A stretch of 64,000 bases of DNA, taken from Malacoraja senta. Taxonomy: Eukaryota. This document shows, one piece after another, positions 15,765 through 60,900 of the stretch; within the stretch, counting starts at the first letter, position 1, and every line of letters starts with the position of its first letter. The stretch is taken from the NCBI GenBank assembly GCA_038087875.1, contig CM075993.1, positions 5,334,001 to 5,398,000 on the forward strand, in the 5' to 3' direction. Made by a program: the position numbers and the translations under genes. Below the pieces are notes generated by a model. It searched no databases. It was not told where the DNA came from and saw only the letters and a list, made by a program, of their open reading frames with translations.

Positions 15765-15794
15765 GCAACGTTTCGGGCCGAAACCCTTCTTCAG
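15765..15794 (-). ncRNA. Minimal hammerhead ribozyme motif in a Penelope-like terminal repeat
   Basis: Minus strand CUGAAGA-A-GGGU(UUCG)GCCC-GAAA-CGUU-GC. Confidence 0.6.
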
Positions 15795-16242
15795 ACTGAT
15801 CCTTCTTCAGACTGATAGAGGGATATGGGACAATCGCAGGCAAGTGGGACTAGTTTAGATGGGGCAGTTTGATCAACGTGGCTGGGGTGGGTTTGGCCGA
15901 AGGGCTGCTTAAATGTTCTGCATGATTCTATAACTGAGAATTGTGGACGCAGCCCATGCATCCAGGTTCAGGAACAGCTTCTTCCCCACATCCATCAGGC
16001 TATTAAACACACAACAAATAAGCTCTGAACTGCAAAAGACTATATTATTATTGCACTATATTTATTATTTATTGAACTTTTTTTCTCTTCCCCCGTTATA
16101 TACAATGTTTACATATTCACACATATTCTGTTGTGCTGCAGCAAGTAAGAATTTCATTGTCCCATCTGGGACATATGACAATAAAACACTTTTGACTCTT
16201 GACACAAACCAATCTCCCTTCCATTGACTCCATCGTCATTGC

Positions 16243-57900: not shown

Positions 57901-60900
57901 TGAACCATTGATGCAAGTAGACACAAGATTGTGGAGTAACTCAGCGGGACAGGCAGCATCTCTGGAGAGAAGGGATGGGTGACGTAGAAACATAGAAATA
58001 GGGGCAGGAGGAGGCCATTGTAGAACCTGCCCAGTCACAGAGACACACGGCACGGGAACAGGCCCTTCGGCCCATCCTGCCCATGCTGACCAACATGCCC
58101 CATCCACCCAGTCACGGAGGCACACGGCACCGGAACAGGCCCTTCGGCCCATCCTGCCCATGCTGCCCAACATGCCCCATCCACCCAGTCACGGAGGCAC
58201 ACGGCACCGGAACAGGCCCATCAGCCCAACCTGCCCCATCTACCCAGTCACGGAGACAGACGCACGGGAACAGGCCCTTCGGCCCATCCTGCCCATGCTG
58301 ACCAACATGCCCATCCACCCAGTCACGGAGGCACACGGCACCGGAACAGGCCCTTCGGCCCATCCTGCCCATGCTGACCAACATGCCCCATCCACCCAGT
58401 CACGGAGGCACACGGCACCGGAAACAGGCCCTTCGGCCCAACCTTGTCAACGTGACTCACCCTTCGAGATGCTCCTCCCCATTGATGTAACGCAGGCTCT
58501 GAAGAAGGAGAGAGACACCAGGGCGTAGGAATGGTGGATCTTCAGGTATCCCGTGATGGTCTCGATTCGGCCCAGATGGCCTCCAGCTCCGCAGCGAGGT
58601 TGTCTGAGGGGGGGGGGGGGGGGGGGGTTAGACGGTTAAACATACTGTGGAAAAGAGCAACTGCAGATGCTGCTTTACACAAAAGGTCACAAAGGAGAAA
58701 TTCAACAGCGGGGGGACAAGTCGATGAAGTGCTGTTGTAACTCAATAGACAACAGGAGCAGGAGTGGAGGCCATTCGGCCCTTCGAGCCAGCACCGCCAT
58801 TCAATGTGATCATGGCTGATCATCCCCAATCAGTACCCCGTTCCTGCCTTCTCCCCATATCCCTGACTCCGCTATCTTTCAGAGCCCTATCTAGCTCTCT
58901 CTTGAAAGTATCCAGAGAGTAAGTACCCCATCGCCCTAGGGTCCCGGCAGCATCAGGAAGTTCTTCCCTACAGCCATCAGATTGTTAAACATGACAACCT
59001 CAACCTTAACTACAACAGACTATTAGTATTACTAATGCACTGTATTGTTTTGTTTTATAAAGTATGTGTGTATGTGTACCTATAGATATAAATATATATA
59101 TGTGTGTGCACTTGTAGGTATGTGTATATATACACACTGAAGTATTTGTCTTTTCTCTCTCTCTCTCTCTCTCGTTTATTATATTGGTCACAGTGTACAA
59201 TGTTCCCATATTCTGTAGTGCGGCAGCAAGTAAGAATGTCATTGTTCTATCTGGGACAGACGACAATAACACACTCTTGAATTGAAGGTGGACACAAAAT
59301 GGTGGAGTCGCTCAGCAGGACAGGTTCAGATCGAGGCCCTTCCTCAGTCTACAGCGAATGCAGCATGGAGACCCGGGTTCGATCCCGACTACGGGGCTGT
59401 CTGTACGGAGTTTGTAAGTTCACCTGCGCGGGTTTTCTCCGAGATCTTCGCTTTCCTCCAACACTCCAAAGACACGCAGGTTTGTAGGTGAACTGGCTTG
59501 TGTCAATGTAAACATTGTCCCCAGTGGGTGTAGGATTGTGTTCATGTGCGGGGATCGCTGGTCCGGCGCGGACCCGGTGGGCCGAAGGGCCCTGTTTCCG
59601 CGTTGGTATCTCTAAACTGATCTAAAGATGTTTGAGGACTCAACTTGCTGGAGTAACTCAGCGGGACAGGCGGCCATATCTCTGGAGAGGAGGAACGGGT
59701 GAGGTTTCGGGGGTCGAGACCTGCCTTCAGACTGAAGAAGGTCGCCCATTCCTCTCCCTAGATGCTGCCTGTCCCGCTGAGTTACTCCAGCACGACTCCA
59801 ACCTGATCTCCCGGTGGCCCCTCCCATTCCGAATCCGACCTTTCTGTCCTGGGCCTCCTCCATGGCCAGAGTGAGGACCACCGTAAATTGGAGGGGCAGC
59901 ACTCATATTCCGCTTGAGCAGTCTGCACCCTAGTGGCATAAACTTGACTTCCCCAATTTCCGGTTGGCCCTTGCTGTCTCCTCCTCTTCTCAGCTCTCCC
60001 TCCAGCCCTCGGGCTCCTCCTCTTCCATTCTTCTCCCACCCCCCCCCCAACCCTACATCAGTCTGAAGAAGGGTTTCGGCCCGAAACGTTGCCTATTTCC
60101 TTCGCTCCATAGATGCTGCCTCACCCGCTGAGTTACTCCAGCATTTTTGAGAAACAATGGTGGGAAACGGAGCGGCCTCAGGGCGAACAGCGACACGTAC
60201 AAGGCGAGCCCCTGCGGCGGGCTGTAGCCGGCGGTACTCACTGCCCTGCGGATGGCGATGATCAGGTTGCCGTTCACCACCGTGCATCCCTTCAGGTACT
60301 GGGCGGCGGTGACTGAATCGATGGTCTCCGTCTTCACCGGGCACACGTTGGGGCAAGGCGTCACAGGGGGTGCAGTACATGCTGTGGAGGCAGAGGGAAG
60401 CGGAGACAACGCTAACAAACTCCCCAGCAAGGTCAGGCCGCACCAAACCCCAAAACCCAAACCCCAACGCCCAACGCCCCAACGCCCAACGCCCAACGCC
60501 CAACGCCCAACGCCACCGCCCAACGCCAACCTTCACTACGTCCCGCGCATTCACAGCTCGGCAGCAAGACTTCGTTACCCCGCTAACGCACGTCTGTGGG
60601 GCCACCTGTGATAGTTATATCCCCCTGTCCGAAAAGTGAGGTGGGGGGGGGGAATGGGAGGGGGGAAAGGGAAGGGGGGAAGGGGGGGTTCAAGTGAGGG
60701 AGAAACGGAAGAGGGGGGAGAGAGAGAGGGAGACCGGGGTGGGGGGAGGTAGAGGGGGAAAGGGGCGAGAGAAGGAGGAAAGGGGCAGGTCTTTCCAATT
60801 TTCCAAGCCCAGTCTTTCCAATCTTTCCTCATATGACAGTCCCGCCATCCCGTGGGATTAACCCAAACCCCACAACGCCACCGCAGGTGGTTCAGCCTGA

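Follow-up and report, generated by a model that had tools for sequence, protein, structure and literature searches.

Abundant minimal hammerhead motifs, probably the terminal units of a Penelope-like element, share a sharp start just upstream of the ribozyme core

The window analyzed here is a stretch of 64 kb from Malacoraja senta, in which part of a host gene lies among many dispersed repeats (Table 1). PDB matches, and for part of them motifs that we take to be those of the gene family, place the exons of the IGF1R/insulin-receptor gene between about 60420 and 45799, in minus orientation. The series stops at the insert-domain exon, which suggests either that the assembly is broken at the N gap (36288-36487) or that a very long intron follows; the same kind of motif search, extended over the rest of the window below 45.8 kb and over the adjoining 100 kb, found no kinase exons. 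A near-identical block occurs twice (~500-5500 and 7900-13100, ~7.4 kb apart, across an N gap at 6964-7163) and probably reflects either an error of the assembly or a tandem duplication that arose recently. A (CA)n-rich array of 6.3 kb (36492-42780) adjoins the N gap at 36288-36487, and (CCAAC)n arrays at 4307-5355 and 11735-12934 carry a truncated pLTR unit at the end and a 16-21-nt duplication. Many 3' fragments of repeats, 200-300 nt long and presumably CR1-like LINEs, are spread over the whole window together with SINE-like repeats (e.g., 7227-7715, 43823-44109, 53596-54120, and 62184-62472). Elsewhere, locus L054 holds an open frame of 343 aa (6986-8014, plus strand), which we take to resemble a Tc1/mariner transposase.

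Table 1. Hammerhead-bearing units, Penelope-like element (PLE) remnants, and host gene in the 64-kb window
Feature	Position	Strand	Basis
pLTR end unit, subfamily A (GUU), intact core 15767-15794, then optional tail	15707..15797	-	
Solo pLTR end unit, subfamily A, intact core, 12-nt target-site duplication, stem I 1 bp	16885..16973	-	
Head-to-head inverted pair; + arm 17320-17407 with intact core, - arm pairs over its cut site	17258..17407	.	
pLTR end unit, subfamily B (GUC), intact core, with tail	30018..30106	+	
Solo pLTR end unit, subfamily B, intact core, 12-nt target-site duplication	31107..31196	-	
Solo pLTR end unit, subfamily B, intact core	44393..44481	+	
PLE GIY-YIG endonuclease C-terminus, frameshifted remnant	59795..59960	+	
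PLE 3' UTR, pyrimidine-rich, up to TCAGT start motif	59961..60059	+	
pLTR end unit, subfamily A, core 60063-60090 intact, joined to endonuclease remnant; host intron, antisense	60060..60149	+	
Degenerate subfamily B head-to-head pair adjoining endonuclease remnant	59645..59792	.	
Diverged unit; core, stem II pairing, and ACGU all kept	33261..33345	+	
Degenerate unit, C-A mismatch in stem II	31353..31442	+	
Degenerate head-to-head pair; + arm G12 to A	29561..29682	.	
Span holding all 52-56 whole or 5'-truncated units	525..60149	.	
IGF1R/insulin-receptor family host gene; exons near 60200-60420, 58551, 53054, 51168, 49749, 47267-47434, 45799-45868	45799..60420	-	PDB matches and motifs taken to be those of the family

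The preliminary description had listed seven complete hammerhead motifs, and direct inspection of the 64-kb sequence found all seven at their positions and on their strands, each with the core CUGANGA, stem II, GAAA, and NUH. The degenerate copies that it had named at 31356, 29622, and 33263 are also present in the window, and the last of these, though degenerate, passes the strict filter (core plus 4-bp stem II). Subfamily A, CUGAAGA-A-GGGU(UUCG)GCCC-GAAA-CGUU, accounts for four of the seven copies (15765, 16943, 17321, and 60063), and subfamily B, GGGU(CUCG)ACCC with GUC, for the other three (30021, 31164, and 44396). Two subfamilies with a paired stem II were thus correctly described, but the difference between their stems is one-sided (U-G versus U-A) and involves no compensatory change. 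Stem I, given as about 2 bp in most copies, does have 2 bp in five of the seven but only 1 bp in 16943 and 17321; the latter is one arm of an inverted pair, and its partner arm pairs over the 17321 cut site. The repeat unit begins at AGT just 5' of the core and extends through a 3' hairpin over ~90 nt.

The window copies show an extra base after A9, a G10.1-C11.1 pair, and a palindromic 15.2-16.2. The extra A after A9, for which there is a viroid precedent in CChMVd, is a general trait of the minimal hammerheads (min-HHRs) of PLEs rather than a special viroid-like feature. Such hammerheads are known from metazoan pLTRs, including those of fish Xena, Poseidon, and Neptune (Cervera and De la Pena 2014, PMC4209133). 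Our motifs share with these the type I core, the unpaired base between A9 and 10.1, the G10.1-C11.1 pair, and the palindromic 15.2-16.2 with no stem III. They differ in the length of stem II, which is 4 bp here and 6 to 8 bp in the Schistosoma and Drosophila examples, and of stem I, which is 1 to 2 bp here and 4 to 5 bp in PLE min-HHRs, with 2 bp in Drosophila virilis (PMC4209133).

Folding predictions, in which tertiary contacts and proteins are ignored, gave a pairing probability of ~0 for stem I and a median of 0.001 for stem II over 211 copies. For 37-nt constructs, the hammerhead dimer was predicted at -6 to -7 kcal/mol versus -21 to -25 kcal/mol for the free cofold, a gap of ~15-18 kcal/mol. 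The 30 matches of an Rfam scan of the window (E<=1) included no hammerhead, only miRNA-like hairpins arising from inverted pairs. A helix between the core strand and a downstream CCUUC, considered as an evolved inhibitory structure, was predicted, but 17-26% of segment shuffles reach it, and it is ascribed to composition because it does no better than these shuffles. An extended stem I, drawn by eye between upstream AUC/CUC and downstream GAU/GAG, was also set aside; folding gave it no support, and it is in competition with the 3' hairpin.

A profile built from nine window copies was used to assess the abundance of the repeat. It matched 56 sites in the window and 293 in evenly spaced genome stretches totalling 699 kb; the same DNA, when reversed, yielded 0 matches. 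The exact core pattern occurs 56,799 times genome-wide versus 0 for its control, and a chance origin is excluded by the two zero counts. A sample of 120 stretches of 10 kb, taken from contigs C1-C25 only and unweighted by size (1,197,800 nt of a 1.94-Gb genome), contained 467 matches, corresponding to ~7.6 × 10^5 related copies (bootstrap 6.4-8.8 × 10^5). An intact core with a 4-bp stem II was retained by 67 of the 467 (1.1 × 10^5 genome-wide), and 44 of these 67 also retain ACGU (7.1 × 10^4 genome-wide). The suggestion that the genome holds very many latent motifs is therefore borne out by both the exact and the sampled counts, with latent rather than active as the fitting word. That some would lie inside introns applies to the copy at 60063, which is antisense, but could be shown for this one of the seven only, the others falling outside the span of the exons placed here. 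Counts of 5.7 × 10^4 (exact) to ~1.1 × 10^5 (relaxed) compare with ~4,000 in coelacanth and 9,000 in Xenopus, obtained with a different descriptor; as with the published PLE min-HHRs, most copies are dispersed single ones from truncated PLEs, and opposite-strand pairs occur (PMC4209133).

Divergence among 276 near-complete copies was used to look for constraint on the ribozyme. G12 is mutated in 28% of them and the CG of the palindrome in 21% and 29%, in comparison with 16-25% for other CpGs; core positions outside CpG differ by 3-8%, and the paired fraction in stems equals the expectation under independence. Since G12 and the palindrome mutate like other CpGs and pairing follows independence, the copies decay neutrally. 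Between the five subfamily modes (cluster 1, with six internally deleted copies, was left out), changes in the core numbered 0/13 versus 13/51 downstream (p=0.054), and each of the five changes that fall inside the ribozyme is of a tolerated kind (loop II, U-A/U-G, H17, and 1.1). The modes have widely different upstream UTRs but an invariant core, and these comparisons suggest that the hammerhead is likely under selection only in the source elements. The conservation check named in the preliminary description thus has a divided outcome: among copies the core is conserved no more than expected, but between modes it is unchanged. Its covariation check gave no support, with only the one-sided U-A/U-G changes between modes and pairing at independence among the 276 copies; its power is low because the family is young.

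The origin of the motifs is apparent from longer loci. In all 10 long loci, which were picked for their open frames, an ORF with reverse transcriptase (RT), zinc-linker, and GIY-YIG domains is followed by the motif. The longest ORF reaches 841 aa (locus L051) and carries YIDD, a C-x4-C-x2-C linker, and GIY-YIG. Pfam matches were obtained for RVT_1 (E 1.2e-5) and GIY-YIG (E 6e-5), with the 841-aa ORF scoring below the curated cut-offs and one ORF piece above them. On the 3' side, the unit lies ~120 nt past the ORF stop. On the 5' side, the unit plus tail precedes the ATG by ~165 nt in 20 of the 25 loci found with the ORF 5' end, which amount to only 5 independent 5' flanks because 16 of the 20 share one flank. 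These 16 loci (L193-L213, mostly small contigs) carry one insertion of pLTR and ORF start that is amplified within a larger repeat. The unit flanks the RT and GIY-YIG ORF on both sides, as expected from the earlier assignment to minimal type I hammerheads on Penelope-like terminal repeats.

The same association is seen in the short copies. The window copy at 60063 is preceded by a frameshifted GIY-YIG C-terminus and a pyrimidine-rich UTR, both subfamilies are found joined to the endonuclease (EN) C-terminus, and the main subfamily clusters contain copies bearing the PLE 3' UTR. The copies have two 3' ends, which differ by a 35-40-nt tail. A partial tandem pLTR, inverted 5' copies, and a 30-40-nt tail are all present in the element, and these features, as well as heavy 5' truncation and a single ORF with RT, CX2-5CxxC linker, and C-terminal GIY-YIG, are shared with EN+ PLEs such as Neptune (Craig et al. 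2021, PMC8557442). What differs from the EN+ PLEs described there is the extreme abundance and the dominance of 100-135-nt insertions with a fixed start. The linker that joins the RT to the EN is a Neptune criterion that is shared with Nematis (PMC8557442), and membership in the Neptune clade is likely, judged from the C-x4-C-x2-C motif rather than from a tree.

This very abundant repeat is a further PLE minimal-hammerhead family, and as a finding it is ordinary because the element class is already known. Sharks are not mentioned in the main text of PMC4209133. Our literature search found no paper on PLE hammerheads in cartilaginous fish, although supplements of the cited papers could list related motifs, and none devoted to the present family.

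The arrangement and the ends of the copies were then considered. Head-to-head pairs hold 236 of 617 matches, and those matches that reach the core start comprise 86 solo, 54 UTR-linked, 47 inverted, and 5 pyrimidine-rich copies. Local tandem repeats of 34 and 49 nt derived from the hammerhead 3' half lie at inverted junctions (20423-20520, 32852-32949, and 48597-48694), and the 34-nt back-jump is also visible in RNA reads. Loci L053, L085, L128, and L183 contain short arrays of a 56-68-nt unit that starts from GAAAC or later and lacks the CUGA strand.

Target-site duplications of 10-16 nt bound 31 of 334 non-inverted copies versus 2 of 659 controls. In 17 of these 31 copies the 5' junction falls at -4 to +1 of C3, and in none at the cut site; their 3' ends cluster near 86-102 (22 copies) and 127-140 (8 copies). 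Likewise, 82 of 219 young non-inverted copies begin at -4 to +1, while 57 reach further upstream. Genome-wide, 2,661 starts were counted at -3 versus 264 at +26, 535 at +28 (the cut site), and 339 at +31, for patterns that differ in length, CpG content, and subfamily coverage, so that the counts are not strictly comparable. Short copies therefore begin at the A of TCAGT, just 5' of the core, and not at the cut site. In a look for an extra G derived from a cap, the base preceding the -3 start was G in 34, A in 48, and T in 18 of the first 100 matches listed (hand count). The rare two-unit loci (L224, L240, and L248) join the leader to a unit that begins at the same place.

Starts at the cut site show at most a weak excess. 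The count at +28 is 1.6-2 times that of its neighbors before removal of internal slips, and 32 of the first 100 matches listed there look like slips from stem II (hand count); in local samples, 11 starts were found at +26 to +28 versus ~5 expected (p=0.015, post hoc). Taken together, the copy ends favor a template RNA that was not cut and a 5' boundary fixed immediately ahead of the core.

The sequence TCAGTCT fits what we take to be the initiator consensus. The common sharp start likely marks the place where the element RNA begins, as judged from DNA junctions only, and Penelope promoters are indeed described as internal, within the pLTR (PMC2377424). A downstream promoter element of the Drosophila Penelope type (PMC2377424) is not claimed, with ACGT ~3 nt off the position expected for it. 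The TCAGT start competes with two other causes of the pile-up: a block of the RT at the pyrimidine tract, which would give a similar pattern, and a splice site, which several results oppose.

According to the splice reading, which we regard as most improbable, the pile-up is a 3' splice site, and the unit as far as an AAG/GTATG donor close to the ORF start is an exon that is spliced or back-spliced into a hammerhead circle. The main subfamilies do carry a pyrimidine tract followed by CAG, a donor-like site is found at the ATG, and in D. virilis a Penelope intron ends at helix I (PMC4209133). At one locus (L217:1226-1600; contig C4, 79.90 Mb), the exact donor-acceptor join is found in both arms of an inverted pair; this join, from the donor-like site before the ATG to the acceptor-like site before the core, could have come from retrocopying of an RNA that had been spliced or back-spliced. 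However, it is the only one of ~5 UTR-to-core joins at the exact site, the rest being scattered; a join from an ORF-end donor has 0 matches, and there is no such joint among the 15 of 197 RNA joints listed. Moreover, element-derived AGT or CAGT directly abuts target-site duplications, which means that the template extends 5' of the acceptor. The 173-nt-spaced pair in L248 was also considered as a spliced dimer and is instead a partial tandem of two pLTRs. The possibility that many dispersed copies are active, with sense pairs in one pre-mRNA or protein-bound copies cutting host transcripts and shaping introns and RNA turnover, also appears very unlikely. The 56,799 exact cores, the weak excess of starts near the cut site, the slow in vitro cleavage by PLE dimers (PMC4209133), and the cleavage of the Anolis element with protein (PMC11167929) speak for it, as do reads containing the element, which make up ~0.12-0.14% of three RNA runs. 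Against it stand the neutral decay of G12 and the palindrome, a stem I of 1-2 bp with unfavorable predicted folds, and the failure of 8 of 9 Xenopus dimers to cleave, as given in the literature. In four raw RNA runs, coded as organisms other than the best DNA match, thousands of reads cover the unit with no peak of beginnings or ends and smooth depth across the cut site. These reads come from poly(A), oligo-dT, and single-cell libraries and are weak detectors, poly(A) selection losing cut ends. The dispersed copies are likely non-cutting, inactive debris, as far as folding models and these reads can tell.

The preliminary description had also proposed a retrozyme-like non-autonomous family. 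In this reading, the short units would stand by themselves, SINE- or retrozyme-like, with transcripts or circles of their own that are mobilized in trans by the PLE protein. Solo copies do outnumber UTR-linked ones among matches reaching the core start (86 versus 54) and are sharply delimited, with target-site duplications, and the Inr-like TCAGT at their start could let them be transcribed, but the TCA of this motif is lost in some. A preprint derives vertebrate retrozymes from pLTRs (bioRxiv 10.64898/2026.07.22.740005), and the non-LTR retrozymes described there resemble our units in being non-coding, pLTR derived, and endowed with a type I hammerhead. They are, however, tandem repeats with a complete hammerhead in each consecutive unit, in contrast with the solo or head-to-head copies with target-site duplications observed here, where consecutive complete hammerheads were found only in the rare two-unit joins. 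Indeed, no regular arrays of complete hammerheads were found: among the 617 matches, only 7 pairs of intact cores lie on the same strand within 1 kb of each other, irregularly spaced at 255-990 nt, and the tandem arrays that do occur (34-, 49-, and ~66-nt units) lack the CUGA strand. With PLE 3' UTR copies in the main clusters and members of each subfamily attached to the endonuclease C-terminus, we consider a self-standing family very unlikely, and the proposal is not upheld.

The explanation that we prefer, and hold to be probable, is that the motifs are the terminal 100-135 nt of an EN-bearing PLE, likely Neptune, that were likely inserted by its own RT and endonuclease, the dispersed copies being predicted not to cut. 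The element RNA would begin at or near the A of TCAGT and carry the unit at both ends, and reverse transcription would start internally at one of two sites. Priming on the 3' copy would give ordinary elements, from 5' truncated to full length; priming on the 5' copy would lead to run-off at the RNA end after 100-135 nt and thereby to solo copies. The template RNA would be mostly uncut, because the copies retain the whole core, and cutting, if any, would require the pairing of two ACGU palindromes together with the element protein, as in Anolis Poseidon.

This proposal has a close parallel in the Anolis Poseidon element PAc, where two internal RT start sites also define the tail, the hammerhead also lies near the ORF start, RNA-seq likewise lacks cut-site ends, and the insertion template is uncut RNA (PMC11167929). 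The two elements differ in that the ORF of PAc starts within stem II, whereas the ATG lies ~163 nt after C3 here, and in that cleavage of PAc was shown to need protein, while here the ribozyme is known from sequence only. Cleavage of PAc is dispensable for its insertion (PMC11167929).

A further reading, which we advance tentatively as possible but short of probable, is that the hammerhead and tail act like the R region of LTR elements. The initiator TCAGT, three bases before the core, would be where the RNA begins and would set the end of a strong-stop-like cDNA of 100-135 nt, primed internally on the 5' copy, that either integrates alone or jumps to the 3' copy and so builds the pLTR; our literature search found no paper on pLTR formation by template jumps.

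Exact ends, available here for thousands of copies, are relevant to the open question of the role of the PLE hammerhead and the origin of pLTRs. The copy number, several times the vertebrate counts reported in PMC4209133, would also offer a well-powered test of the host cost of latent hammerheads. If the R-region reading is true, lone integration would account for a major share of the roughly 750,000 copies, and the genome would be a massive record of pLTR formation in which the ribozyme stayed uncut on the template.
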